The position numbers and the translations under genes were made by a program. Below are positions 16,824 to 58,869 of a stretch of 59,546 nucleotides of DNA, in pieces. The stretch's first letter is position 1; every line of letters begins with the position of its first letter. Source of the DNA: an uncultured bacterium. Lineage in GTDB: Bacteria; Patescibacteriota; Minisyncoccia; Phycocordibacterales; Phycocordibacteraceae. The notes below the pieces were generated by a model. The model was not told the origin of the DNA and searched no databases. It saw only the letters and a program-made list of their open reading frames with translations. The DNA lies in the NCBI GenBank assembly GCA_947085985.1, contig CAMTYL010000004.1, forward strand, positions 1 through 59,546, in the 5' to 3' direction.

Positions 16824-17115
16824 TGGTTGCGGGGCCCAGAATCGAACTGGGGTCTGGAGGTTATGCTTACCACTACAATTTTCATTGCCCCTTGCGGGTT
16901 TGCGGTCTGGACTATGCCTTCACCCCAAAGGGGTGCCTACCGTCTAGTCTCTACACCTTCCGATTCTCTTTCGAAAAAAGGCTTGGCTCGGCATTGCCTT
17001 TCATTCTCGCGAATGTGAGGGTTTCACCGAATTTGGCAGGTAATCTTACACAGAATTGCTCCTATGCACGCCCGAATTGTTCAAGCCTCCCGAGGTACCT
17101 CTCCTCTACCCCGCT
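16824..17115 (-). tRNA. tRNA (anticodon CAU, initiator-like features) interrupted by a group I intron; exons 17115-17084 and 16865-16824
   Basis: 5' exon AGCGGGG-TA-GAGG-AGAGGTA-CCTC-G-GGAGG-CT. 3' exon CATAA-CCTCC-AGAC-CCCAG-TTCGATT-CTGGG-CCCCGCA-A-CCA. The spliced product is a 74-nt cloverleaf with loop CUCAUAA. It has A11:U24 and an unpaired 1:72 position (A/A), both initiator-like. Confidence 0.8.
16866..17083 (-). ncRNA. group I intron (IC3-like, about 218 nt, no ORF) in the anticodon loop
   Basis: Begins right after a U (GGAGGCU|) and ends in G (..GGUAAG|CAUAA). Contains core blocks I recall from the Azoarcus/cyanobacterial tRNA introns: CAAAUUCGGUGAAACC, GGCAAUGCCGAGCCAAGC, GAAGGUGUAGAGACUAGACGG. 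Confidence 0.75.
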
Positions 17116-40512: not shown

Positions 40513-40586
40513 GCGTCCGTAGCTCAGTTGGTTAGAGCTCGGAGCTTATACCTCCGCGGTCCCTGGTTCGAGTCCAGGCGGACGCA
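40513..40586 (+). tRNA. tRNA-Ile (anticodon UAU)
   Basis: Acceptor GCGTCCG/CGGACGC, D arm GCTC..GAGC, anticodon arm CGGAG-CTTATAC-CTCCG, T arm CCTGG-TTCGAGT-CCAGG. Confidence 0.88.
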
Positions 40587-40613
40587 CCCCAATAGCTTCT
40601 AGTGCCCGAACGA

Positions 40614-43550: not shown

Positions 43551-43958
43551 GGGGGTGACCGGCTTTGACGGTCTTGTACTTTGAGAGACGTGCGACGCGG
43601 TGGAAGTATGCTGACCACCTAAAAACGTATGCAACTAAACTTGCCAAGAATTCTCTTGCAAGCGTAAAGTCTCCTTACTTCGGTAAGTCGGATTTTGCGT
43701 TCGCTTACGCGTAAAAGCTTCGCGCTTTCGCCTGAGCGACATCTTATCTATCCCGGGTTTCGTAGCGGGTAGGTAGGGTGGAATCTTCTACGGAATCGGT
43801 ATCTAGGGCCTCCCTGCCCCAGGCTTAAAAGATGGGATTGGGTGCGAGTGGTTTCGCTTTTGTTTTTACACTCACACCGACACTTCAATAGAAGCTACGC
43901 GTCGTAGACTCGCTCTTAAAGCAAGATTCGGACCGGAGTTCAACTCTCCGCACCTCCA
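43551..43958 (+). ncRNA. ssrA: tmRNA (SsrA)
   Basis: 5' GGGGGUGACCGGCUUUGACGG pairs with 3' CACCUCC-A, including the G3:U70 alanine identity pair. T arm CGGAG-UUCAACU-CUCCG. The internal tag frame ends ...GKSDFAFAYA-UAA (stop at 43712-43714). The gene sits next to smpB. The resume codon is not determined. Confidence 0.85.
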
Positions 43959-45590
43959 CATGGTTTCATGATTAGGCACGAAAGTGCCTTTTTGTGTATA
44001 TTCTTCCTGGTTTTCTAGAGGTTCTAACCAAACACCAAGAGAGCTTGCTTCAAGTAGAACCTGTACCGGTTTTTCCGTATTCATAGTGAGTATTCCCTGG
44101 TCGAGAACATGCTCATCACCTAGAGCAGCAATAATGGCTCTTCGCTCCAATACTCCGCCTTTAGCAAACTCCTCACTGGCTCGTTCAGCAAACGTCATGA
44201 GTCGTTCAGCGTCATCTATCCAGGTCTTGAATCGTTGGTCTACTGACTCAATTTCAACTTTTAATCTTCGTTCCTCTGCTTCAAGCGTTGCTCTTCGTTC
44301 CTTATATTCATCACCCTCAATCTCGCTAGCCAGTCTCATCTCAAAGAGCGTTGTTAGCTGCTGCTGTGTGGCCTTGAGTGCCCGTTCCTGCTTGTAGAGG
44401 ATAGAATCCTTATCATTGGATTCCCTTTCATATTCAGTACGGAGTTCAGCCATAGCCCACTCGTGGAATCGAGCGTCTATCTGAATTGAGGAGAGGAAAT
44501 CAGCGAACACTACTTCTAATTGCTTTTCGGTTATAGACTTCTGCTTACAATCACTCTTTATCTTCCCTGTGCAACGATAATAGGAGTATTCGTGGTAATT
44601 CCCATTCATCTGGGTCTTAGTCTTCTTTTCGCAGGTTATCCTTGCGCCACATGCACCACAGCGCATAAGTCCGGTATACGCGTGGACATGAGTGGTGCTT
44701 CTTGGCTTTCCTTTCTTTCCTAGCAGTCTTTGCACCTCATCAAATTGAGCTCGCGTAATTAAAGGCGTGTGTGTGCCTTGGTAAGTGATGATTTCGACGT
44801 CCTTATCTCCCCTCCTCACAGACCAAGTAAATTCGCCGTAGTAAAAGGAGTTGTTGAGAATGTTATAGAAGCCGTGTATGGATAGCGGCCTCCCGTTCGG
44901 ATTCCTGACTGTTTTACGCGCCCTCATGCCCCACTCCTTTACTGACAGCATATAGACCTGAAACGGCGTGTACTTGCGTGAAAGCAGAGTATCGAAAATC
45001 TTCTTTATTAGTACGGCATTGTGTTCGTCTATTTCGCAGACCTCTGGCTTACCTTTCTCCCTGAATTTGGTGTTCTTATAACCAATCGGAGCAAGGCACG
45101 GACGGAAGCCTCGCCGAAGCGACTCCATCTGTCCACGCTTTATATGCTTCTTGAGGTCGCGTGAGTACTGCGTTGAGGAACTCATTTCGACAGACCACAT
45201 GATTGTGTGGTCATCGGGGTAGAGATCTCTGTCGGTAGCCTTTATATTCTTGATGATTTCTTTCTGGAGAAAGTACTTAATCTCCCCTTCGTCAATTGAG
45301 TTGCGTGAGAGACGGTCAATTTTGAAACATAGGATTGCATTCGCATTCCCTTCCTCGATGTACCTCATCATTGCCGTAAACTCAGGTCTTTGCCGAGGCT
45401 CGCTTGCAGATACCGTCTCAGTAAACTCTTTAACGACCTTTAACCCGTACTTTGAAGCTAGCTCGTGGACTTCATTAAGCTGCGAAAGGATAGAAGGTAC
45501 GCCAACATCCTCCTCGGTCCTATTGGCCTTAATCGAGCGTCTCGCATAGATAACATATTTAAGCCCCTTATCTCTATCCTCCCTGTACAT
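43872..45590 (-). CDS. large serine recombinase (integrase)
   Basis: Resolvase catalytic domain (YVIYARRS ... FKIDRLSRN), recombinase domain, zinc ribbon (CGACGARITC ... YYRCTGKIKSDC) and coiled-coil. Start set to ATG 45590 (the track start at 45635 is TTG). The last ~30 codons overlap ssrA. Confidence 0.88.
   Translation of the reverse strand: MYREDRDKGLKYVIYARRSIKANRTEEDVGVPSILSQLNEVHELASKYGLKVVKEFTETVSASEPRQRPEFTAMMRYIEEGNANAILCFKIDRLSRNSIDEGEIKYFLQKEIIKNIKATDRDLYPDDHTIMWSVEMSSSTQYSRDLKKHIKRGQMESLRRGFRPCLAPIGYKNTKFREKGKPEVCEIDEHNAVLIKKIFDTLLSRKYTPFQVYMLSVKEWGMRARKTVRNPNGRPLSIHGFYNILNNSFYYGEFTWSVRRGDKDVEIITYQGTHTPLITRAQFDEVQRLLGKKGKPRSTTHVHAYTGLMRCGACGARITCEKKTKTQMNGNYHEYSYYRCTGKIKSDCKQKSITEKQLEVVFADFLSSIQIDARFHEWAMAELRTEYERESNDKDSILYKQERALKATQQQLTTLFEMRLASEIEGDEYKERRATLEAEERRLKVEIESVDQRFKTWIDDAERLMTFAERASEEFAKGGVLERRAIIAALGDEHVLDQGILTMNTEKPVQVLLEASSLGVWLEPLENQEEYTQKGTFVPNHETMWRCGELNSGPNLALRASLRRVASIEVSV
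43974..43993 (+). terminator. rho-independent terminator of ssrA (lies inside the recombinase ORF on the other strand)
   Basis: aggcac-gaaa-gtgcct followed by TTTTT, 16 nt after the tmRNA discriminator base. Confidence 0.7.
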
Positions 45591-45777
45591 ATGATTTTGA
45601 TGGCCAAAGCTGAGCGTAGGTCTGTCTGAATTCAAGCAATTCGTTTGCGTCCATCTTTTCGAGAGGCGTTGTGCAAATCATGATGAGCGTCTGCACCAAC
45701 TCCTCCCGCGACATGGACTCAATCTGATGAATCATGTCCGCGACTACATAGTCTCTAAGTTCCTCGATGCTATTCAT
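45574..45777 (-). CDS. small hypothetical protein (island)
   Basis: 67-aa ORF overlapping neighbours by a few nt, in an operon-like array upstream of the recombinase. Confidence 0.4.
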   Translation of the reverse strand: MNSIEELRDYVVADMIHQIESMSREELVQTLIMICTTPLEKMDANELLEFRQTYAQLWPSKSYVQGG

Positions 45778-47837: not shown

Positions 47838-48590
47838 CTAACCTTTTTTCTTGAGTAAAGTCTTTTTCTTCAAAAGATTTATGGGGTTGCTTATCGCGGC
47901 ATAATCTTTGAGGAGTTGTTCCAAGACGAGAGATACTTCGCTCAGTTCTTTCACGCCACGCGGACTCGAATCAACAAAAGTCCTGACCCAACCTGCTTTA
48001 CCTTTTTCGAGAAAGGCCTTCTTAAAGTTCTGGCTTAGTTCTTCATTTGACCAAACAAGTAGAACCTTGCCTTTAGTTCCGCTATTAGTGTGCACCCGCC
48101 GTACATCGGTTGACGCGATTGAGTTATCAGGAAACCAAACCTTCTTGCCTTTGGCTTTTACAATAAAAATAAGAACGGGATGCGTCTTTACCGTTCCTGA
48201 AAGAATCCGCATTAAGTCTGTGCGAGTTTTAACGGAGAGATAATCAACTCGATATCCTATCTTTTCAGCAGACTCTCTCAGACGTTTTGCCTTATCGGAG
48301 TATTCCTCTATCGCGGCAATTGTCATGAAGCTACGACGACGCACATCTTCGTAATCGCCACCGAGCCTCCTCATACCCTTTAGCTCTCCTTTATTCCAGA
48401 GCCTAATGAATTCTTCAACGTTCTTTCTATAGATTACGTATCGCTTACTTCGACCTTCGCCTCGATACTTGGGTTGAAAGATGTCGCTATGCATATCCAC
48501 CTGCTTTCTCACGGAAGCGATATTCTTCCAATGAAGCAAGCCCGAGTCGGCAAGCTCGTTAAGTGTGAAGAAATCCTTGTCGGCAGCCAT
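47838..48590 (-). CDS. excisionase-like HTH N-terminal domain protein with unknown C-terminal domain
   Basis: N-terminus FFTLNELADSG...GEGRSKRYVIYRKNVEEFIRLWNKGELKG is paralogous to both halves of ORF 58321-58869 and fits the MerR/Xis-type HTH_17 pattern. Confidence 0.5.
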   Translation of the reverse strand: MAADKDFFTLNELADSGLLHWKNIASVRKQVDMHSDIFQPKYRGEGRSKRYVIYRKNVEEFIRLWNKGELKGMRRLGGDYEDVRRRSFMTIAAIEEYSDKAKRLRESAEKIGYRVDYLSVKTRTDLMRILSGTVKTHPVLIFIVKAKGKKVWFPDNSIASTDVRRVHTNSGTKGKVLLVWSNEELSQNFKKAFLEKGKAGWVRTFVDSSPRGVKELSEVSLVLEQLLKDYAAISNPINLLKKKTLLKKKG

Positions 48591-49404: not shown

Positions 49405-50616
49405 TTACAGGGCCTCTGTAAAACTTACGTTACTCGTTATGCTCTTTTTAATAATCTGATTGATTCTAGGATCATACATAAACTCATCAATTCTGTTTGA
49501 AATAATTAGGTCAATTACTTCCTCCATTAATTTAATATCAACCTTAAACCATTCACGAGGTCTATATGATATTCCCTTTCTATCTAGAAGTTCGACATCT
49601 AGCTTTACGGTTGAAAAGAAATCATGAATTTTTTGTTCAAGGCCATGGGTCTGAATATTTAGACATCTGAAAGTGGAAACTACATCAACGTCATCAAATA
49701 AATAAGTTGCTTCGTTTTTCGCATTTTTAATTCTCTCTGAAACAAGTCCTGACGTATAGCCTATCTTGTACAAATCCTTAATGCTTTGGACACTTGCGTT
49801 GCGACTCTTTAAGACATATATGTATCCATTTAACACATCGGACTCCTCTGTCGTGTCTTTTGAGGTGGCGGTATTTTCAATCTTTCCAATTGAATAACCG
49901 TCGAGTTGCATTGCTTTATCCAAAGAACGAAATAGCATTTCCGATTGGGTGCCATTGTCAAATATGCACAAAGTACGGCCATCAAATCGATCTCTTTTCC
50001 CGCTTACATATTCGTATTTATCAACATCACCATTGATACTTTCTAAATAGAGCAGGACACCATTCAAGACATAGAAGCTTCCTTCCCTCAGGTCTGCTGA
50101 GTCGTATTTTGTTAACCTTCTCTTTTTTGACTCTAATTCCTCGTGCAGAACATTAAACATTTCTTTATACCGAGAAAATTCTTTGTTAACCTTACGCCTT
50201 GAGAGGAAGTCGGGCTTGATTCTGTCACTGGGCCTTACATGTCTCAATTTAAAAATATCTGAGTCTGCAGTTTTACTAAGCAAACCTAGCGGATCATTCG
50301 AAATGATATCTTCTACTGTCACTTCCTTTACTTCACCACCCTTGAGCAGACCATTAAAGTCATATTTCATTAGTTCCCTGACTTTTTTGGGATTTTTTCT
50401 GATTGCATGAAGTCGGGAGGCAAGTTTGAATTCAATAATATTTGAGATATCCGATTGAGGTTCTCTTTTGTGTTCTTCAAAATACTCTTGTATTTCTTCA
50501 AATGAAGATACCAAGATGCTGTCCTCATGCGATACAGGTCGTTTAGTAGACGTATTCTTGAGCAATCCGAGAGGGTCATTCTTTAGAAGTTCAAGAACGT
50601 CAGACCTCTTGCTCAT
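49405..50616 (-). CDS. T5orf172 / GIY-YIG-like nuclease-domain protein
   Basis: C-terminal domain GYIYVLKS...LYKIGYTSG...R...E..IH..F...REWF fits the T5orf172 (MUG113, GIY-YIG-like) pattern. The N-terminus has two NDPLGLL repeats. ATGA overlap with the helicase stop. Confidence 0.7.
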   Translation of the reverse strand: MSKRSDVLELLKNDPLGLLKNTSTKRPVSHEDSILVSSFEEIQEYFEEHKREPQSDISNIIEFKLASRLHAIRKNPKKVRELMKYDFNGLLKGGEVKEVTVEDIISNDPLGLLSKTADSDIFKLRHVRPSDRIKPDFLSRRKVNKEFSRYKEMFNVLHEELESKKRRLTKYDSADLREGSFYVLNGVLLYLESINGDVDKYEYVSGKRDRFDGRTLCIFDNGTQSEMLFRSLDKAMQLDGYSIGKIENTATSKDTTEESDVLNGYIYVLKSRNASVQSIKDLYKIGYTSGLVSERIKNAKNEATYLFDDVDVVSTFRCLNIQTHGLEQKIHDFFSTVKLDVELLDRKGISYRPREWFKVDIKLMEEVIDLIISNRIDEFMYDPRINQIIKKSITSNVSFTEAL

Positions 50617-52556
50617 ATGTTTTGCTCACTATTAATTTGTCGTAGATAGACCAGTGCCTCTGCCATTCTCCTCTCAAGTGGGTCCAGGGCATCAAAACTA
50701 GGTTCCTTACCTTTAATGAGGAAGAAATCCTGTATCTTAGGCCACAAGATAATAGCTTCATCATCTGTCATCTGAATTTTAAGCGCCTGAATACACTGCT
50801 GTACTGCCTTAAAGACCCTTGGACTCAATTGTTTAGACATAACCTCGAAAGCATTCTGAAACGGATTTATCGAGTAAATCAAATCCATGTTCAGTTCAAG
50901 AACATTCACTAGCCTGTTGGCAAAGACTATAAATTTATCGTTACCCTGCTCGACAATATTACTTGCTCTAACCACGGAGCTTACTGCAACGTAATCACCC
51001 AACTCTTTAAGTTCATCTTTGCTTAAGTCCGGGTAAATCTCTTGGATTACTTTCGGAATGAGAGCTCTGTTCAATACGTCTGGGTCTACCACCCCAGGGA
51101 ATGAACTCTGTATCTCAGGTGATTGAAGAATCTTTGCCTTCAAATCAATAAGGTCGTTATCAATGATTTCTCTTAAACGTGCAGAGCTTGGTTCTTTGAA
51201 CCCTTTTATGAAAATATCAACACCATTCGTATTGCCTTGGTCAGATTCCTTAGATCTAAAACTAAATTTAGGTGCCATTACTTCCTCCATTAGCAATGAT
51301 GCCGCTATTGCTTTAAGCATGTTATTTACACTGTCAGCAATATCCTCACTTTCTGCGTCTGGTTCAGCAATAAGGTTCGTGAATTGAGCATGGCTTTTAT
51401 TCTCGCTATCACGTGTGCAACGTCCAATGATTTGAATAATCTCGGTTAACGAACCACGGTACCCAATTGTCAGAGTGTTCTCACAAAATGGCCAGTCGAA
51501 ACCTTCCTTAGCCATTCCAAGAGCAATTACCATATCGATGTCATCTACCGTCTTCACATTGCGGAGATATGCCATAACCTTATCCCTCTCTAAGGGATTA
51601 TCGTTAACCAAGTCCGCTATTTTGATAGTCCTTCCGTCCGCACTTTTTAAAGAGATTATTCCGTGCTCATCAGTAGAAACATACGTGCCAATATGGTCCA
51701 AAATCGAGTCTACTTCGAGCATTTTCTCTTTAGTCGATTCAGACGCATTCACGCTAGGAATATGAATTATTGTCTTCTTTTTGAGGTCAATTATCTTAGG
51801 AATTGCGTCTAAGTATTTTCCTTTATAGAAATGGAAACCAATCCCTAGCGATTTAAGGTACTCGTATCCATTAAGCTGCTCGTAATAGTTGTACGTTACT
51901 TTTGTAAATTTCTGCTCATCCTTTGGTGACAAAACAGCAACTGAGTCACCGCGAAAATATGACCCAGTCATCGCCAGGATGTTAGCGTTGGTATTCTGCA
52001 TGATATTGCTAAGCAACTGCCCCAACTTACTTTCTATGTCCGTTGAGACATGGTGAAACTCATCAATTGCAACAAGGCAGTTGTTGAATGCCTCGAAGCC
52101 AACTTGATCGAAGGCAAATCTCAAGGTTGAATGAGTGCAGAGAATAATTTTTGCATCTGACTCCATGAACCTTTTAAAGGCAACGGTCTTCCTCTCTTCC
52201 CCGCCAGGTGAGCAAAGATCATATTGAGGATCGATTACCCAATCCGAGTGAAATCCGTCCTGGGATAAGTTTGTGGACGCAAAAGATTTGGCAATTGACC
52301 TTTCAGGGACTGCAACGATAATTTTTTTAACTAAATTGTGTTTGAGTTTCTCAAGGGCAACATACATTAGGGCTCTAGACTTGCCTGAACCTGGAGGTGC
52401 TTTTAAAAGCAAATACTTGGAATCAAATTTTTGGTATACCCTTCTTTGCATTTCACGCATCCCTTTACTGTCAGCAAGTATGCTGCTTCCATCGTGTTCG
52501 TATTCGACATTAATTAGATTTTCCATTTTGGGTAGCGGTATTTTCGTATAAGCCAA
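50613..52556 (-). CDS. SF2 DEAD/DEAH-box helicase (ResIII-like)
   Basis: Walker A KAPPGSGKS, motif II AIDEFHH, motif III MTGSYFRGD, motif VI QIIGRCTRD; about 200-aa helical C-terminal extension. Confidence 0.8.
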   Translation of the reverse strand: MAYTKIPLPKMENLINVEYEHDGSSILADSKGMREMQRRVYQKFDSKYLLLKAPPGSGKSRALMYVALEKLKHNLVKKIIVAVPERSIAKSFASTNLSQDGFHSDWVIDPQYDLCSPGGEERKTVAFKRFMESDAKIILCTHSTLRFAFDQVGFEAFNNCLVAIDEFHHVSTDIESKLGQLLSNIMQNTNANILAMTGSYFRGDSVAVLSPKDEQKFTKVTYNYYEQLNGYEYLKSLGIGFHFYKGKYLDAIPKIIDLKKKTIIHIPSVNASESTKEKMLEVDSILDHIGTYVSTDEHGIISLKSADGRTIKIADLVNDNPLERDKVMAYLRNVKTVDDIDMVIALGMAKEGFDWPFCENTLTIGYRGSLTEIIQIIGRCTRDSENKSHAQFTNLIAEPDAESEDIADSVNNMLKAIAASLLMEEVMAPKFSFRSKESDQGNTNGVDIFIKGFKEPSSARLREIIDNDLIDLKAKILQSPEIQSSFPGVVDPDVLNRALIPKVIQEIYPDLSKDELKELGDYVAVSSVVRASNIVEQGNDKFIVFANRLVNVLELNMDLIYSINPFQNAFEVMSKQLSPRVFKAVQQCIQALKIQMTDDEAIILWPKIQDFFLIKGKEPSFDALDPLERRMAEALVYLRQINSEQNI

Positions 52557-55098
52557 ACAGGTGCTTTATCCTCTCCATGTCAGATACGAAGGCTTCATCT
52601 TTATAACATGAATCTATCTCTTTATCAAGACTATCATGCAAGATTTTAAGTCTTTCAGGGAGAGCACTGTAAAGACTTCCTAGGCTTATGTCGCTGAAAT
52701 TTTCCCTCTCATTTATTATGTCACCAACTAACGAGGTTATGTGATGCTTCTTTTCTGAAGTTATTTCTGGAAATGGAAATGTGTTATACCCGAGTTGGCT
52801 TGAGTATCGAAGCCTTGTTTCTAGATTTCCGCACACGGTACGAATCCAGACCATATGCATCTGTGATGACACTAGTCCGAAAATCCAAGGTTCGCAATCG
52901 TATACAGCAAAAGCAAGGTTCGACACGATTGTGTCGCTACCTACGAAGCCGATTGGAATGTACTTCCTCTTTTCAGACGAGACTGATGGCACTACCAGGG
53001 TCTGAGAGTGTGTTTCTCTGAACTCTCTAAATTGATACGGACGTTCCGCAAGTCTACGTGCACCAGCATCTCTTTTAGATAACCTGAATTCCCTTACTCT
53101 ATCAACCCTTTCTTTTACTGCCTGAATTGAAGTGGCTTCTTCTACCTCATCTGAGTCTATCCAAAGACACCACCGCTCAATACTGTTTATAAATTCGTCC
53201 GAGCCGACTAGTTTTTTCAGAAACTTAGAAGCTTTAGGCGAATCTGTCGTAAGCTTGACCATTTCTTCCTTACTAAGAAGAAGATTTTGGTCATCGTATG
53301 GCATGTTGCCTTTCTGCATGACAGGCAATTCTTTAGATACAGGTTTCCTCTCCTCTTTAACTATTGTTCTCGTTGAATTAATTAGATATGGCCCAATACT
53401 ATCGGTGTATATGACTTTATTATCTGCATACAAATATTTAGTCTCTCGTTGGTTGTTTGAGTCAGTTAGCGCGACAATGATTACCGTCACGCCCGTAGAA
53501 GGTGTTGCGTCACCCCTCCATTTAAATGAACGATAAGCGAAAGAAATGTCACAATTGAGAGCATAAATTTTACTCCACACAAACGAAACCTGTGTACCCT
53601 GACAAATTGAATTTGTAATCACCAGGGCACATTCAGACTTCGACCCCTTAATATACTCAGCCGATTTGTATAGCCAGCTAGCACTATAGTCTGTGTCTCC
53701 CAAACGCTCAGAATCAAACACCGATTGCATTTTCTTCTTCTCTTGAGATGAAATCTTTTTCGCACCTTTAAATTCAGGACTTCCAATGATATAGACATTG
53801 TCATTGTTTGGACAGGCATCCTTCCAATTTGAAAGAAGCTGGTCCCCCTTTTTAATATTTACGTTGTTGTAGGTACTAAGTAAGTCACCTTCTTCAAAGA
53901 ATTCATTGCTGTGCAAATACTGCAAATACGAAACCCAGAGCGTTAGGTGAGAGAATTTAAATGACAAATCGTTATCTACCAAGCCGATAAAGTTATTAAG
54001 ATTAACTTCCCTGGAAGGATTTTGCCCTTTTAGCTTATTGATAAGTGTCAGCAGATCAACAATGCTTGTAAATGAAGATGACAAGAAACAGCCAGGGCCA
54101 TTTGTTGGGTCAAAGAAAACCTTGTTAAGCAGTTCCTCCTTTATTTTTTGAAGTCTCTCTGCATCATCTTTATTTATAGAAATTAAATCTTCGTACTTAT
54201 TTATAAATAGCGGATTCAATAATTTAGCTATATTGTTGTGAGAAATAAAACGCCCGTAAATACCTGGATTGCTGTCCTTCTGCGTCAGCTTATAGGTAAG
54301 AGTACCCAGTACTTCTGGGTCAATATTAATTAACTCATAACATAAGATCTTTGCGGAGAGTTCAAAACTGATTAGATTTATATGCGGTAGTGTATTTTTG
54401 GTGTGCCCAAATCTTCCAAAGAAGGGCAACTTGGCAAAGGATGCATCATTCGTAATATTTTCTAATGTTGCATCAAAAATACCTTTGATTTGGAAATTGT
54501 AGTCTAATTCTTGTGAAGCAAATATCCATTGAAAGTATTTCTCTATCTCTTTGTTCTTGGTGATTGATTTACTGAAACTTAAGTAAACAAGCGACAATGC
54601 GTAGTCGGTAATCTCCTCTCCCAAAGAATCATTTTTCTTATCGAGACTTAACTGATTAAATAAACTTGCCATTAACTCCACGAAATCCAGAGTCGTTGTC
54701 AGGTCTCTTTCATCTGTCTTGCCGTATATCAACGGATTAAAAAAGCTTACATGTTTGTAAACTTCATTTGGACTAAATTCAATTAATTCATCCGTAACTA
54801 AATCCTTGCACATAACAACGTTGGAATTTAATAAAACAACAATTCTCGGAGCCTCTGTTAAACCAGCTTCAACAGAAGCAAAATCATCTTTACTCACTAT
54901 GCTTTTATCGTAGATAAAAACGGCTCTTTTGTAGATATAGATTGGTTTTAAAAAGGACTGTTTCTTGGCATTCTCAATTGATCGTTTAATTGTCGAATCT
55001 GAGATTTGTAGTGCCGAAAGTAGCTCCTCAATATATTGGGAAACTTCAATGAAACGAATTCCTTGTAATGAGTTAGTTATTTCGTTAACAGTCCTCAT
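52510..55098 (-). CDS. MmeI-family (type IIL R-M enzyme-like) protein with non-canonical catalytic motifs
   Basis: Colinear by eye with MmeI as I recall it: RIVVLLNSNVVMCKDL.. / SAM motif I FFDPTNGPGCFL / motif IV position YIIGSPEFKG / ITNSICQGTQVSFVW / FINSIERWCLWID / RKYIPIGFV...FGLVSSQMHMVWIR...RLRYSSQLGYNTFPFP. Confidence 0.75.
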   Translation of the reverse strand: MRTVNEITNSLQGIRFIEVSQYIEELLSALQISDSTIKRSIENAKKQSFLKPIYIYKRAVFIYDKSIVSKDDFASVEAGLTEAPRIVVLLNSNVVMCKDLVTDELIEFSPNEVYKHVSFFNPLIYGKTDERDLTTTLDFVELMASLFNQLSLDKKNDSLGEEITDYALSLVYLSFSKSITKNKEIEKYFQWIFASQELDYNFQIKGIFDATLENITNDASFAKLPFFGRFGHTKNTLPHINLISFELSAKILCYELINIDPEVLGTLTYKLTQKDSNPGIYGRFISHNNIAKLLNPLFINKYEDLISINKDDAERLQKIKEELLNKVFFDPTNGPGCFLSSSFTSIVDLLTLINKLKGQNPSREVNLNNFIGLVDNDLSFKFSHLTLWVSYLQYLHSNEFFEEGDLLSTYNNVNIKKGDQLLSNWKDACPNNDNVYIIGSPEFKGAKKISSQEKKKMQSVFDSERLGDTDYSASWLYKSAEYIKGSKSECALVITNSICQGTQVSFVWSKIYALNCDISFAYRSFKWRGDATPSTGVTVIIVALTDSNNQRETKYLYADNKVIYTDSIGPYLINSTRTIVKEERKPVSKELPVMQKGNMPYDDQNLLLSKEEMVKLTTDSPKASKFLKKLVGSDEFINSIERWCLWIDSDEVEEATSIQAVKERVDRVREFRLSKRDAGARRLAERPYQFREFRETHSQTLVVPSVSSEKRKYIPIGFVGSDTIVSNLAFAVYDCEPWIFGLVSSQMHMVWIRTVCGNLETRLRYSSQLGYNTFPFPEITSEKKHHITSLVGDIINERENFSDISLGSLYSALPERLKILHDSLDKEIDSCYKDEAFVSDMERIKHLFGLYENTATQNGKSN

Positions 55099-55997
55099 AC
55101 TGTATCGAAATTCTTATAAATAAGTCTTGCGACGTATTCTGCCATCTTTACCGGAACAGCATTTCCTATCAACTGTTCTACCTGTGACCTTGTGCCTTCA
55201 AATATAAATTCCTTTGGGAAAGTCTGAATGTAACTACGCTCCTTACTTGTTAGTGCACGTACTTTACTTAGATCTGTTGTTTTATCTGCACTATGCACAG
55301 CGTACGTTTTTGGAATGGGTCTATTGACCCCTCTTATTGTTGAACTTGGTTCATCAATTGAGAATATTGCTCTGCGACTGTAGCTCCTTGGGTGCATATA
55401 GTAAAACTCCGTTTTCAGGCTTTTGCCGAAGTAGTCTCTAACTGTCATATGCTTCTTGGATAGATTCTTATGCAAAATATCTTCCAAGAAATTGTCCTCA
55501 CTACCCAATTTCCCAATCACAAAAAAGCGTTTGCGGGATTGAGGTACGCCCATAAGACTAGCATCAAAGACACCTTTAGTGATTCCATACCCTGCTTTTT
55601 TAAAATTACCTATCGCTTTGGCTAAAACGGGAGATTTTTCGATGTTGTAAACATTCTCCATTACAAACCACTCAGGACGGAGGCTTGAAACTATATTGCT
55701 AAATACCAATGTCAGGTTAGCTCTTTTCCCTTTAAAGTTCCTACCTCCAGCAATTGAGAAATCTTGGCATGGAGGTCCCCCAATAATAATGTCTGGCTTG
55801 AATTTACTAAGTTCTTCAATCACAGATGGATCAAATAGATCCTTTTGAAAAACAGGGTGGTCGAAGTTTTTCTTATAGACTTCGACAGCGGGAGCCCAAT
55901 TGTCATATGCTGACACCACATCAAAACCAGCATTTTGGAAGCCTAGTGACATTCCTCCACAGCCAGCAAACAAATCTACTAATTTAATTTTTTTCAT
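55095..55997 (-). CDS. DNA (cytosine-5)-methyltransferase, copy 2
   Basis: Motif I DLFAGCGGMSLGF, motif IV GGPPCQDFS, motif VI ENV, motif VIII QSRKRFFVIG, motif X GNAVPV. ATGA overlap with the downstream gene. Confidence 0.9.
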   Translation of the reverse strand: MKKIKLVDLFAGCGGMSLGFQNAGFDVVSAYDNWAPAVEVYKKNFDHPVFQKDLFDPSVIEELSKFKPDIIIGGPPCQDFSIAGGRNFKGKRANLTLVFSNIVSSLRPEWFVMENVYNIEKSPVLAKAIGNFKKAGYGITKGVFDASLMGVPQSRKRFFVIGKLGSEDNFLEDILHKNLSKKHMTVRDYFGKSLKTEFYYMHPRSYSRRAIFSIDEPSSTIRGVNRPIPKTYAVHSADKTTDLSKVRALTSKERSYIQTFPKEFIFEGTRSQVEQLIGNAVPVKMAEYVARLIYKNFDTV

Positions 55998-56913
55998 GCC
56001 TTATATATTCCATTAGTGCTGCTGAAATATATTCAGCCAACTTCACAGGAACTGCGTTCCCAATAAGCTGGTTAAGGGTAGTCTTAGGTCCTTCAAAAAC
56101 GAAATCTTCTGGGAAGGTTTGAATTAAGCTTCGTTCCTTATAGGTAAGTGTTCGAACAGACGGATTCAGTGGTATCGGGTCAGTAGGATGACCAGGATAG
56201 CCACTTGGAACCGGCCTATCGACTCCTCGAATAGTCATAGAGGGCTCATGGATACTGAAAATACCTCTGCGACTGTAGGATCGTGGCACTCTGAAATAAT
56301 ACTCAAAGCCTAATGAGTTACCAAAGTAGTCAAAAATCGTCGTTTGCTTTTCACTCTGACCTTTGACCAACCTATCTAATAGAAAGTCATCCTTGCCACC
56401 AAGCTCACCTATAACTACGAAACGCTTTCTTATTTGAGGTGCTCCGCAACGACTAGCATCTAAGACTAAGTGTGTGAGTCCGTATCCTAATTTACTAAAC
56501 TTCTTCATAATTTTTGGGAAGACTTCACTCTTCTGAATTCGCGGGACATTCTCCATTACAAAATACTTCGGCTTTATATCTGCAATAATTTTAGAGAACG
56601 AAATAGTCAATTCAGCTCTTCCTAGATTTTCATCACGATGTCCGGCACTAGAGAAATCTTGGCATGGAGGTCCCCCAATAATAATGTCTGGTTTGAAGGA
56701 TTTAATATCTTCCAAGTCTGAAGTGTCACCCAAATCCTTTTTGAAAATCGGATGCTTAAAGTTCTTCTTGTAAACCTCTATAGCCGGGTCCCAATTATCA
56801 AAAGCGGCAACAACATTAAAGCCTGAGTTCTCAAATCCTAGTGACAGACCTCCACAACCAGAGAAAAGATCCACGACAGTTGGAGCTACTTTTTTTGATT
56901 TGTTAGTTTTCAT
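55984..56913 (-). CDS. DNA (cytosine-5)-methyltransferase, copy 1
   Basis: Motif I DLFSGCGGLSLGF, motif IV GGPPCQDFS, motif VI ENV, motif VIII QIRKRFVVIG, motif X GNAVPV. Paralog of copy 2. Confidence 0.9.
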   Translation of the reverse strand: MKTNKSKKVAPTVVDLFSGCGGLSLGFENSGFNVVAAFDNWDPAIEVYKKNFKHPIFKKDLGDTSDLEDIKSFKPDIIIGGPPCQDFSSAGHRDENLGRAELTISFSKIIADIKPKYFVMENVPRIQKSEVFPKIMKKFSKLGYGLTHLVLDASRCGAPQIRKRFVVIGELGGKDDFLLDRLVKGQSEKQTTIFDYFGNSLGFEYYFRVPRSYSRRGIFSIHEPSMTIRGVDRPVPSGYPGHPTDPIPLNPSVRTLTYKERSLIQTFPEDFVFEGPKTTLNQLIGNAVPVKLAEYISAALMEYIRHEKN

Positions 56914-56916
56914 ATA

Positions 56917-57093
56917 TTAGTTCCCTCCCGTGTTAGAGCTAGCCTTGATAAAAGTCTCTAAATCCTTTTCTGATACCCTCCAATGCCCTACCTTGGATGC
57001 TTTTAGTTTCTTACTTTTGATATGCCGAAGGATAGTGCGGTCACACACCTTAAGCCTGTTCGCAGTCTCTTTTATGGTTAAAAGTGTATCCAT
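56917..57093 (-). CDS. small HTH DNA-binding protein (excisionase/MerR-type, 58 aa), first gene of the operon; not in the ORF track
   Basis: Hand translation of the minus strand: MDTLLTIKETANRLKVCDRTILRHIKSKKLKASKVGHWRVSEKDLETFIKASSNTGGN. Classic HTH_17 pattern. The stop lies 3 nt before the MTase start. Confidence 0.7.
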   Translation of the reverse strand: MDTLLTIKETANRLKVCDRTILRHIKSKKLKASKVGHWRVSEKDLETFIKASSNTGGN

Positions 57094-57180
57094 GTACAGA
57101 ATTGTCCTGTTTTGTACTATAGAGTATAGGGAAGTACAGATATATACCTAAATATACCGACATGTCCTGTATTGTCATAT
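57094..57180 (-). promoter_or_regulatory. Putative promoter/operator region of the HTH-MTase-MmeI-like-helicase operon
   Basis: Dense short direct repeats directly upstream of the HTH gene: tgtcctgt(t/a)ttgt at 57103-57117 and 57163-57177, gtacaga at 57094-57100 and 57134-57140, atatacc twice (57142-57158). Confidence 0.45.
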
Positions 57181-57280: not shown

Positions 57281-58210
57281 CTATGCACTCTTAAGGTATT
57301 TTGGAAAAACCGAACGAAACTTCTCTACGACACCAAGAAGCCATCCGAAGTAGGACTCCCAGTTCTCTTGGTTATTGAAGTCACCCTCATAAGAAACCTT
57401 GATACGGCTTGCTTTCTTGCCTGGCAACTCCATCCATTCCAGCCTCTCACTCAGTGCTGCTTCTATCTCGTCCTTGTGTGTAAGGATTTCAGCATAAAGT
57501 TCTTTGTTGTCGGGGATGTGTAATTCAACTCCAAACGTATTGTCTTTGGAATTGATAGTCATGGAGATATACGCCTCGCTGGTGCCAATACTCATATTGT
57601 TCCAGTGCTGAGGATTGCTCTTATGAAAGCGCAGGTTGCTATTGTTCTTCTTAGCGTATTCCTTGAGTGCGTTCCAGAAAGCCAATTGTTTTAGCTTAGT
57701 CTCGGTAAGTTCCCCACTTCCAACGGATTCCTTAACGGCTTTTGCCCAATCGTTTGGCTTTGAGATTATTTCGAACTTCGGAGCGAAGTCAGAATCCCCA
57801 ATCTGCCACAACTCAATCTTCAACAAATAAAACTCAATGTTTTCGTCAGTATGCTCATTAAGCCAGTCAATTGCACGACGATGCTCCTCTCTTACATCTT
57901 TCACCACCCAAATTATGGCCTCAGCGTCATATCCAGACGCGTAAGTAATTACCTTTCCAAGATGGTCATGGTTGGTAATCTCCAACTGATTCTCGATGAT
58001 AATCTTCTTTCCAGTGCCGTCTTCCTCAGCAAGGATATCGACGTTGAAATTCCCCACCGAGGCTTCGGTTTGAATTAGTTTTATCTCAAGACCAATCTCA
58101 TCTCCCAAAAGAGACAGATTCTCCTCTTGGGCAAGCCACTGTGTAAAATCATGGGCTTCGTGCCGCCAACCTTCGCGCAGCTCGACTCTTTTAAGCTTAC
58201 CTAGACTCAT
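57281..58210 (-). CDS. PD-(D/E)XK (NucS-like) N-terminal domain + DUF4268-like protein
   Basis: GNFNVDILAED...KIIIENQLEITNHDHLGKVITYASG...IIWVV.....HRRAIDWLN fits the family usually annotated DUF4268. Start set to ATG 58210 (the track start is TTG). Confidence 0.6.
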   Translation of the reverse strand: MSLGKLKRVELREGWRHEAHDFTQWLAQEENLSLLGDEIGLEIKLIQTEASVGNFNVDILAEEDGTGKKIIIENQLEITNHDHLGKVITYASGYDAEAIIWVVKDVREEHRRAIDWLNEHTDENIEFYLLKIELWQIGDSDFAPKFEIISKPNDWAKAVKESVGSGELTETKLKQLAFWNALKEYAKKNNSNLRFHKSNPQHWNNMSIGTSEAYISMTINSKDNTFGVELHIPDNKELYAEILTHKDEIEAALSERLEWMELPGKKASRIKVSYEGDFNNQENWESYFGWLLGVVEKFRSVFPKYLKSA

Positions 58211-58320
58211 TACCAAGAATAATAGCTCCCGACGGGAGAAACTCAAAAGTCCGAGATTCTCTTAACAGCTTAGACCCTCCTAGGGTTCCTGGGTCTCAAC
58301 TTTTTCGCTTCCTTATTAAA

Positions 58321-58869
58321 CTAAGTCTTAGATTTTAAGTAGTCTCGCAAATCTGTTTCTTTTATCCAATATCTATTGGCTACCGGCTCCCCATCTACTG
58401 ATGATATGAGTCTTACCTTGAGACCTTTCAACTTTCCTGCTTTGAGGTGTGCTCTGAAAGTGTGATAGGTACTAATTCCAGGAAGCATCTTTGCATTGCA
58501 TACTTGCCTAAGGTTGTACCAACCCTTCGTGTTCTTAGTTAAAGACAATTCTTCTTTTCGAGCCTTTCTCTGTTTCGGAATTGGCTTCATCTTTTTGGAC
58601 ACTATTCTGCCCTTAAGTTCATTCCTTTCGAAACGATCAATCAATTCCTGTAGATTCTTTCCTTCAACGAGATATCGCTTCCCTGACGCCTTCCCCCTAA
58701 CCTTTGGCTTTAAGATTCTAGAGAACTTGCGATGCGACATGTATTTGAGAATGGTTTTATAGGAAGTTACCCAATATATGAGATTCTCCTCACGAATCTC
58801 TCGTGCACTATACATTCGTGCGCTCTCAACAGCTCTGTTCCGGACTTTTGCCCTCATTACAAGAAGCAT
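58321..58869 (-). CDS. tandem excisionase-like HTH domain protein
   Basis: Two internal repeats (YSAREIREE...GKRYLVEGKNLQELIDRFERNELKG and WYNLRQV...ANRYWIKETDLRDYLKS) related to the N-terminus of ORF 47838-48590. Confidence 0.5.
   Translation of the reverse strand: MLLVMRAKVRNRAVESARMYSAREIREENLIYWVTSYKTILKYMSHRKFSRILKPKVRGKASGKRYLVEGKNLQELIDRFERNELKGRIVSKKMKPIPKQRKARKEELSLTKNTKGWYNLRQVCNAKMLPGISTYHTFRAHLKAGKLKGLKVRLISSVDGEPVANRYWIKETDLRDYLKSKT

Follow-up and report, generated by a model that had tools for sequence, protein, structure and literature searches.

We analyzed a 59,546-nucleotide (nt) stretch of DNA from an uncultured bacterium of the Patescibacteriota (contig CAMTYL010000004.1 of assembly GCA_947085985.1; hereafter called the window), which carries a six-gene operon on its minus strand at positions 49,405–57,093. 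This operon is probably a 5-methylcytosine (m5C)-dependent offshoot of the YeeA(DnmA)-YeeB-YeeC (YeeABC) restriction-modification (R-M)-like defense system. In other words, an R-M-like system apparently exchanged its own N6-methyladenine (m6A) activity for a borrowed m5C pair, the C5-cytosine methyltransferases hereafter called M1 and M2. The analysis draws on orthologs, Pfam, PADLOC, NCBIfam, Rfam, AF2 models searched with Foldseek, and neighbor-joining trees, and all functional statements are inferred from the sequence. The initial annotation of the region had proposed an R-M-derived defense-type cassette, which we judge to be right. Its further proposal, in which two Dcm-type enzymes take over the methylation while a helicase and a GIY-YIG protein do the cutting, is plausible.

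The operon and its YeeABC core

By its genes and their order, the core of the operon is the known YeeA(DnmA)-YeeB-YeeC cluster, described in 2009, and the statement of the initial annotation that the combination maps to no named system therefore has to be withdrawn. Morgan et al. (2009; PMC2731913) sorted the MmeI homologs into two sets, one bearing the nuclease and the other lacking the PD-ExK motif. In the second set, for example with Bacillus subtilis YeeA, they found the flanking genes to encode, “invariably”, a YeeB-like DEAD helicase and a YeeC-like GIY-YIG protein. In their proposal, the specificity and the m6A protection come from the MmeI-like subunit while the other two proteins cut. 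They drew a parallel with the logic of the Type ISP and Type I/III systems, and reported that neither set is flanked by additional methyltransferase genes. The YeeABC synteny was subsequently surveyed and confirmed (Fernandez et al. 2023; PMC9973331). In our helicase-anchored scan, the order of the MmeI-like, helicase, and T5orf172 genes was found in at least 582 species genomes from nearly all phyla, with the T5orf172 gene downstream (third) in nearly all of the loci tabulated, and the window helicase has at least 8000 database homologs. The system is thus common, yet poorly understood.

The window operon shares with this class the three core genes, their order, the absence of PD-ExK, and the proposed division of labor. 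The helicase gene adjoins and overlaps the MmeI-like gene, the helicase and the T5orf172 protein are 52–61% and 29–56% identical to those of canonical members, respectively, and a 47%-identical homolog of the latter bears the JGI name “yeeC”. In an N-terminal alignment, the nuclease motif D-x9-E-x-K is present in a stand-alone MmeI-type protein (L004) and absent from both the canonical YeeA-type proteins and the window protein, so its loss is ancestral to the YeeA class. The earlier claim that the MmeI-like protein has lost both chemistries accordingly stands, but the nuclease half of this loss is not particular to the operon. The differences from the canonical loci lie elsewhere. The canonical loci have no other methyltransferase, whereas in the window two C5 methyltransferase genes lie directly upstream and overlap. 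Moreover, the canonical proteins have an m6A pocket with invariant NPPY and His314, whereas the window protein has DPTNGPGCFL, SPEF, and Arg283, and the DNA-contact residues, which diversify among the canonical members, are nearly fixed in the clade of loci with the C5 pair (hereafter called the variant clade).

In the direction of transcription, the operon encodes an HTH_17 (excisionase/MerR-like) helix-turn-helix (HTH) DNA-binding protein of 58 residues (positions 56,917–57,093; Pfam HTH_17, 54 bits; NCBIfam “excise” domain), M1 (55,984–56,913; 309 residues; Pfam DNA_methylase, 226 bits), M2 (55,095–55,997; 300 residues; Pfam DNA_methylase, 229 bits), the MmeI-like (YeeA-class) protein (52,510–55,098; 862 residues; Pfam MmeI_Mtase, MmeI_TRD, and MmeI_C), the YeeB-like superfamily 2 (SF2; DExH) helicase (50,613–52,526; 637 residues; Pfam DEAD, ResIII, and Helicase_C), and the YeeC-like T5orf172/GIY-YIG protein (49,405–50,616; 403 residues; Pfam T5orf172 and MUG113), a putative nuclease subunit. 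These profile matches bear out every domain call of the initial annotation, and the PADLOC Type IIG RM profile (REase_MTase_IIG, 547 bits) spans the MmeI-like protein nearly end to end; the NCBIfam profiles added nothing specific on the six proteins. The open reading frame (ORF) listing likewise reproduced the six packed minus-strand genes at the coordinates first given for them, with 3 nt between the HTH stop and the M1 start and overlaps of 14 nt (M1/M2), 4 nt (M2/MmeI-like), and 4 nt (helicase/T5orf172). A 47-nt overlap between the MmeI-like and helicase genes, also given there, requires the alternative TTG start at 52,556. Because the helicase orthologs called in the database are uniformly 637 residues long, the helicase probably starts at the ATG at 52,526, which gives a 17-nt overlap. 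A sigma-70-like promoter match lies 5′ of the HTH gene (57,151–57,178, minus strand; 10 of 12 hexamer positions) and is weak evidence; in a promoter and terminator scan, such sites in the region were no more numerous than in the shuffled expectation.

At least 12 species-representative genomes and many metagenome contigs, across phyla, show the same tightly packed gene order, and the arrangement is thus not due to chance. When species-representative genomes were scanned with the MmeI-like protein, the order M1, M2, MmeI-like, helicase, T5orf172 appeared in three Bacteroidota metagenome-assembled genomes (MAGs), and the neighborhoods of more distant members, in the cultured Chitinophaga sancti (CP139247, about 228.7–248.6 kb) and in Eubacterium gut contigs, have this cassette as well. 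The co-conservation anticipated by the initial annotation therefore holds for five genes. It does not extend to the HTH gene, whose position in the other variant loci is occupied by HTH_3, HTH_26, an unrelated small ORF, or nothing. Judging from these neighborhoods, the core does not include the HTH gene as an orthologous component, and only a small upstream regulator is recurrent, which fits a controller role; the HTH_17 protein is probably the operon controller. One variant cassette, in a long-read Chitinophagaceae MAG (L001, 8169–15,592), shows apparent frameshifts in M1 and in the MmeI-like, helicase, and T5orf172 genes, which could be sequencing errors or real pseudogenization; apart from it, no frameshifts were found in the variant cassettes.

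In neighbor-joining trees of the helicase, the MmeI-like protein, and the T5orf172 protein, the loci with C5 methyltransferases form one clade in each of the three, divided into a window/Bacteroidota-type subclade and a Firmicutes-type subclade. On the basis of these concordant trees, we conclude that a YeeABC system captured the M1–M2 module once. The variant clade is common in gut Firmicutes, in Bacteroidota, and in environmental bacteria. A plasmid search returned canonical YeeA-type genes only, and no variant-clade member. As a separate observation, the canonical YeeABC locus of the Moraxella osloensis plasmid pYHS1 (L172, 1274–10,357) contains two gene pairs inserted between the methyltransferase and helicase genes, namely a RelB/YafQ toxin-antitoxin pair and a DUF4433/macro-domain (DarTG-like) pair.

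The m6A site and the C5 methyltransferase pair

To relate the state of the m6A site to the presence of the C5 pair, we tabulated the 80 helicase-anchored loci listed, together with the earlier loci. Where an MmeI-like gene lies upstream and C5 methyltransferases are absent (about 60 loci), motif I, (I/F/V)FDPACGSGNFL, and motif IV, GNPP[YF], are both invariant. Where two C5 methyltransferases lie upstream (11 loci), at least one of motifs I and IV is altered in every case: motif I is changed in most of them, and motif IV reads SPEF, SPIF, SPVF, or NPSY, while one locus keeps NPPY and has a broken motif I. In MmeI, the flipped adenine is boxed in by the NPPF motif, His314, and Trp570, for which Callahan et al. 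(2016; PMC4833311) report absolute conservation across 341 enzymes of the family. Aligned with MmeI (PDB 5HR4), the window protein has Ser440 for Asn481, Glu442 for Pro483, and Arg283 for His314, and the codons of its motif IV, S440-P-E-F443, lie at 53,770–53,781 (minus strand). Together with the absent PD-ExK, these substitutions agree with the description of the protein as “degenerate MmeI-like” in the initial annotation. The six adenine-pocket residues are all kept in 51 of 51 canonical proteins, and substitutions occur in all eight variant proteins compared. Each of these 51 canonical partners has NPP[YF] as motif IV, whereas the subclade of the window has S-P-x-[FY]; the latter form, with x free (E/V/T/I/Q), is also that of 29 further database clusters from this subclade, which share a new invariant motif I, FDPTNGPGCFL. 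The Pfam models N6_Mtase, Eco57I, and MmeI_hel no longer match the window-subclade proteins. The window MmeI-like protein has thus apparently lost its m6A activity, as judged from these motif states.

These motifs also bear on a different explanation, in which the MmeI-like protein is still an active amino-methyltransferase, producing m6A or, through S-P-x-F, N4-methylcytosine, and the C5 enzymes add a second protection layer or a second specificity. N4-cytosine methyltransferases have the motif SPP[YF], which S-P-x-F resembles. Motif I keeps its G-x-G, invariant in the subclade, the methyltransferase fold is predicted with high confidence, and the Firmicutes-type subclade keeps a conserved NPSY/NPPY. 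Nevertheless, this explanation is unlikely: motif IV varies freely at its second proline, the family-wide conserved His314 or Asn481 is replaced in every member, the amino-methyltransferase Pfam models have ceased to match the window-subclade proteins, and the erosion is perfectly correlated with the presence of the C5 pair.

The erosion is confined to part of the protein. Of the columns whose invariance among canonical proteins reaches at least 93%, the variant proteins retain 96–97% in the target recognition domain (TRD; range across the two subclades) and 83–90% in the methyltransferase domain's C-terminal half, as compared to 44–60% in its catalytic N-terminal half and 32–51% in the helical linker; the control values are 92% for the helicase and 93% for the T5orf172 protein. 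Correspondingly, the TRD, the C-domain, and Trp570 are conserved in the window protein, while PD-ExK and the m6A pocket are not. The AF2 model of this protein (pLDDT 88) matches 5HR4 in Foldseek (E = 6e-51, TM 0.80), and its weak internal loop, residues 275–283, holds the His314 equivalent. Since the eroded region is conserved within the window subclade (mean pairwise identity of 0.52, a level close to that among ordinary family members), motif I has a new invariant form, and the AF2 model is confidently MmeI-like, the methyltransferase domain looks repurposed rather than decaying. We give a low chance to its serving, catalytically dead, in one of the following two ways. In the first, it would be a base-flipping sensor: the target cytosine would enter the S-P-x-F pocket, its C5-methylation state would be read, and the helicase and nuclease would then be licensed, with S-adenosylmethionine possibly still bound through the newly fixed motif I. 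In the second, it would serve as a specificity subunit of a Type-I-like kind and would, in addition, bring the two very small C5 methyltransferases to the site. Either way, if true, would be a new manner of coupling m5C marks to an ATP-dependent restriction motor.

M1 and M2 are paralogs with 58% identity, and each forms its own ortholog group that is conserved across the clade. The M1 motifs are intact (FSGCGG, GGPPCQDFS, ENV, QIRKR, and GNAV), as are all of the catalytic motifs of M2, and motifs I, IV (GPPCQ), VI (ENV), VIII, and X are kept in 16 of the 16 C5 proteins examined. In two loci, a Vsr gene lies directly downstream of the cassette, as expected where m5C is made. A methyltransferase-anchored scan, in which 80 loci were listed, placed the family in other settings as well: 45 loci have a single copy (many of them cyanobacterial) and 35 have the pair, and the MmeI-like, helicase, and T5orf172 genes accompany the C5 methyltransferases in only 5 of the 80. 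The genes that follow the pair elsewhere are AAA_5 and RE_LlaJI or DUF2357 and PDDEXK_7, and the relatives of M1/M2 in the LlaJI-type cassettes are 57–60% identical to them. LlaJI itself has two m5C methyltransferases and the McrBC-like R1/R2, and recognizes the asymmetric site GACGC/GCGTC (PMC1459862). The likeness is a small C5 methyltransferase pair, one per strand of an asymmetric site, heading the operon; the difference lies in the restriction half, which consists of an AAA_5 GTPase and RE_LlaJI there, and of an MmeI-like protein, an SF2 helicase, and a GIY-YIG protein here. From these contexts, we conclude that M1–M2 is a candidate portable methylation module for an asymmetric site.

A LlaJI-type identity of the window operon was rejected: two C5 methyltransferases are present, but Pfam finds neither AAA_5 nor RE_LlaJI in the operon, and these domains occur only in the other loci with related methyltransferases. 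A link to the characterized M.LlaJI was also not established, as its plasmid pNP40 is not among the matches, and the best annotated relatives (55% identity) are methyltransferases of small E. coli plasmids, one of them labeled hindVM. Consequently, since pNP40 M.LlaJI is no close relative, a recognition sequence for M1/M2 is not asserted. In two further loci, of Alteromonas sp. A079 (L182, 5080–9812) and a Coriobacteriales MAG (L202, 7998–12,744), C5 pairs adjoin full-length MmeI-type enzymes in the opposite orientation, with MmeI_N, NPPF/NPPY, and His314 all intact. If functionally linked, these loci could resemble an intermediate stage of the modification swap.

Specificity, proposed working, and related systems

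How variable is the DNA recognition of the variant clade? We compared the twelve structurally defined DNA-contact positions of MmeI (PMC4833311). Canonical pairs with 40–70% overall identity share 4.1–4.5 of the 12 contact residues, whereas variant pairs with 25–55% overall identity share 11.2–11.7. Distinct contact signatures number 46 among 51 canonical proteins, as compared to 2 among 8 variant proteins, and a larger database sample agrees on the near-fixed signature of the variant clade. Moreover, the ranking of the domains by conservation is inverted: the TRD comes first in the variant subclade (0.72) and last in ordinary members (0.37). The near-frozen specificity would be explained by the distribution of methylation and recognition-for-cutting over three proteins, which would have to change in a coordinated manner, so that change is selected against. 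Systems with a single TRD for methylation and restriction diversify their specificity freely, whereas the variant clade keeps almost one contact signature across phyla. It thereby gives direct comparative support to a long-standing idea on the evolvability of the Type I, IIL, and ISP architectures. The exact signature of the variant clade, K-M-D-E-S-V-N-L-L-E-R-R, also occurs in a canonical YeeA-type protein of a Leptospiraceae MAG (L031), which has an intact NPPY and His314 and no C5 methyltransferases; by its contact residues, this protein may recognize the same site as the variant clade, through m6A, and would then be a useful comparison when the motif is sought.

Two residues of the window protein point to a possible m5C sensor. 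Leu728 stands at MmeI position 774, and Arg764 is the equivalent of R810. The MmeI A774L mutant recognizes only G:C at position 4 of its site, and cannot cleave DNA with m5C there (Callahan et al. 2016; PMC4833311). As Leu728 corresponds to the mutant residue, m5C sensing by the TRD scaffold of the window protein is plausible by analogy. The published MmeI code would give a site with a GACG core, for example GACGAC, if M645 is read as A (position 2), N773 as C (position 3), R810/L774 as G (position 4), and E806/R808 as C (position 6). This site is a lead rather than a result, and counts within the window were uninformative.

We propose that the operon works as follows. M1 and M2, one per strand, would place m5C on the host copies of one asymmetric site. 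The MmeI-like protein, which by its motifs would neither cut (an ancestral state) nor make m6A (a clade-specific state), would read this site through its TRD on unmethylated DNA, and m5C would block productive binding. Its N-terminal domain would then couple to the YeeB-like DExH helicase for ATP-driven translocation, and the YeeC-like GIY-YIG protein would subsequently cleave, in a logic like that of the Type ISP, Type I, and Type III systems. The upstream HTH protein would probably time the expression, like an R-M controller protein.

Several points weigh against this reading. It assumes that the specificity of M1/M2 matches that of the MmeI-like TRD, and the close relatives of M1/M2 (57–71% identity) mostly occur without the cassette. 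Minority contact signatures exist in the clade (L013, L173/L176, and P0149); on account of L173, L176, and P0149, the specificity is not taken to be identical in the whole clade, and the signatures suggest that it is restricted strongly, not absolutely. The Firmicutes-type subclade, with its conserved NPSY and mostly intact motif I, may retain some amino-methyltransferase activity. The assignment of the T5orf172 protein as the nuclease subunit is putative, by family membership and conserved residues, and its AF2 model (pLDDT 76) has no significant PDB match in Foldseek. Finally, the parent system is not always active, as the B. subtilis YeeABC cluster has no restriction/transformation or phage phenotype (PMC9973331). 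PDB sequence searches gave nothing informative for the helicase or the T5orf172 protein, and weak eIF5A-like Foldseek matches to the central beta domain of the latter were not taken as evidence.

Some of these points would also fit two unrelated neighbors, namely an independent m5C methyltransferase pair (an orphan or an R-M leftover) beside a decaying, non-functional YeeABC relic. The report of the B. subtilis dnmA-yeeB-yeeC cluster as a non-functional relic (PMC9973331), the eroded m6A motifs, and the occurrence of the M1/M2 family mostly in other contexts are in line with it. We nevertheless consider it quite improbable, because three gene trees agree in placing the association in a single clade, which reaches across several phyla with a conserved order and overlapping genes, and because the signs of a relic are lacking: the TRD, the helicase, and the T5orf172 protein keep nearly all of their canonical-invariant columns, the eroded region is conserved with a newly fixed motif I, and frameshifts are limited to the long-read MAG. 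At the level of individual residues, the helicase keeps the motifs GSGKS, DEFH, and QIIGRcTRD, and the T5orf172 protein keeps the tyrosines of GIY and YIG. Its residues Y267, K284-I-G286, R295, N320, E327, and E355-W-F are invariant, with Y267, K284-I-G286, R295, N320, and E355 being so in 38 homologs. We therefore prefer the m5C-dependent YeeABC offshoot.

Among the other known systems, PADLOC assigned no named multi-gene system to the operon, and PADLOC and NCBIfam gave only generic matches (RM type IIG, MTase_II, weak mad1/mad8, Cas3, PbeA, and PDC-S57). MADS, BREX, DISARM, and Druantia were rejected, as their signature proteins were not found. In agreement with the exclusions made in the initial annotation, neither PADLOC nor Pfam matches PglZ, BrxC, or BrxL in the six proteins, and PADLOC finds no DrmA, DrmB, or DrmC; HsdS, HsdR, and Mod have no profile matches either, the ResIII match of the helicase (32 bits) being to a generic SF2 domain. 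The likeness to DISARM class 2 and BREX consists of methyltransferases together with helicase-type proteins and of a weak profile similarity to the DrmMI, DrmMII, and PglX folds, with the DrmMI/DrmMII profiles being secondary matches from the methyltransferases only. The Type ISP (LlaGI and LlaBIII) and Type I/III systems would share with the operon a site-specific reader, an ATP-driven translocase, a nuclease, and host protection by methylation. They differ in that the subunits are separate here, as compared to one polypeptide in Type ISP, that the nuclease is GIY-YIG rather than Mrr or PD-ExK, and that the mark is m5C from separate enzymes rather than m6A from the reader's own domain; the HsdS/HsdR and Mod/Res architectures of Types I and III are absent from the operon. 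MmeI (Type IIL; 5HR4) shares the fold, the TRD scaffold, and the contact residues N773, L805, E806, R808, and R810. A Type IIL identity was rejected, however, since PD-ExK is absent and N481S, P483E, and H314R substitutions are present (SPEF as motif IV), and since the single polypeptide there is replaced by separate helicase, nuclease, and methyltransferase proteins here. In E. coli genomes, megablast of the operon and host DNA gave no match.

An m5C-modifying branch with a dead m6A site and near-locked specificity was found neither in our literature searches nor in PADLOC, with REBASE not covered. What appears to be undescribed is limited to three points: the lost m6A site, the two recruited C5 methyltransferases, and the near-fixed specificity that results. 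A natural branch that splits reading, marking, moving, and cutting into four separate jobs offers a clean handle for dissecting YeeABC, and knowing the site and the mark of the clade could help to explain transformation barriers.

The mobile island and the surrounding window

The G+C content falls from about 52% to about 41% at approximately 44 kb. A transfer-messenger RNA (tmRNA) gene, ssrA (43,551–43,961, plus strand; Rfam RF00023, 94.5 bits), marks the left boundary and the integration target; Rfam finds it at full length, while ARAGORN missed it. Its 3′ end overlaps the 3′ end of the ORF of a large serine recombinase (43,872–45,635, minus strand; Pfam Resolvase, Recombinase, and Zn_ribbon_recom). 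Because these three features coincide, the operon lies on an island inserted at ssrA, in keeping with the mobile island of the initial annotation, and a defense example on a horizontally acquired island is thereby added for the Patescibacteria. The enzyme inserting at ssrA is a serine recombinase, where a tyrosine recombinase would be usual. Within the window, neither a repeat (12 nt or longer) of the tmRNA 3′ end nor the right end of the island was found, and the latter is probably beyond the window.

R-M systems are known to act as selfish addiction modules, and the operon could by the same token be a selfish addiction or epigenetic module that stabilizes the island through post-segregational killing, rather than acting mainly in phage defense. 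The ssrA-integrated island with its serine recombinase fits this idea, as does the occurrence of the cassette on gut mobile elements with integrase, relaxase, and VapE genes. The idea is not exclusive with defense, however: yeeAB homologs protect Vibrio crassostreae against one phage clade according to genetic evidence (Piel et al.), and Abi_2 and HNH defense genes neighbor the cassette in other loci. As the main role of the operon, addiction is very unlikely.

The island also encodes, by Pfam, a Phage_rep_O-like protein and a DUF4268 protein. The latter has 321 residues with a C-terminal DUF4268 (108 bits) and is encoded immediately upstream of the operon, likewise on the minus strand (57,281–58,246). 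A 182-residue protein (58,321–58,869) and a 250-residue protein (47,838–48,590) of the island have N-terminal sequences related to it, and all three may be further island cargo or defense genes.

On the operon strand, 42 nt 3′ of the T5orf172 stop, lies a full-length LOOT RNA motif (Rfam RF03000; 49,246–49,363, minus strand) that scores 73 bits, where the gathering score is 46.4 (E = 7e-12). It recurs in an identical island from another metagenome (L009) and in none of 7 other cassette loci. LOOT was therefore rejected as a part of the system, and belongs to the island or the host. LOOT is not known to have an assigned organism or function; here, a mobile island of a Patescibacteria genome carries it.

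The host is a Patescibacteria (CPR) bacterium, and its FtsH protein is 74–75% identical to those of Patescibacteria and Ca. Kaiserbacteria MAGs. In the host part of the window, a group I catalytic intron (16,885–17,102, minus strand; Rfam RF00028, 53 bits) matches the full-length model. The first kilobase (1–1000) has 63.5% G+C, as compared to about 50% in the rest of the host region. Just downstream of recG lies a tRNA-Ile gene with the anticodon UAU (“tat”; 40,513–40,588, plus strand), an uncommon way of decoding AUA in bacteria.

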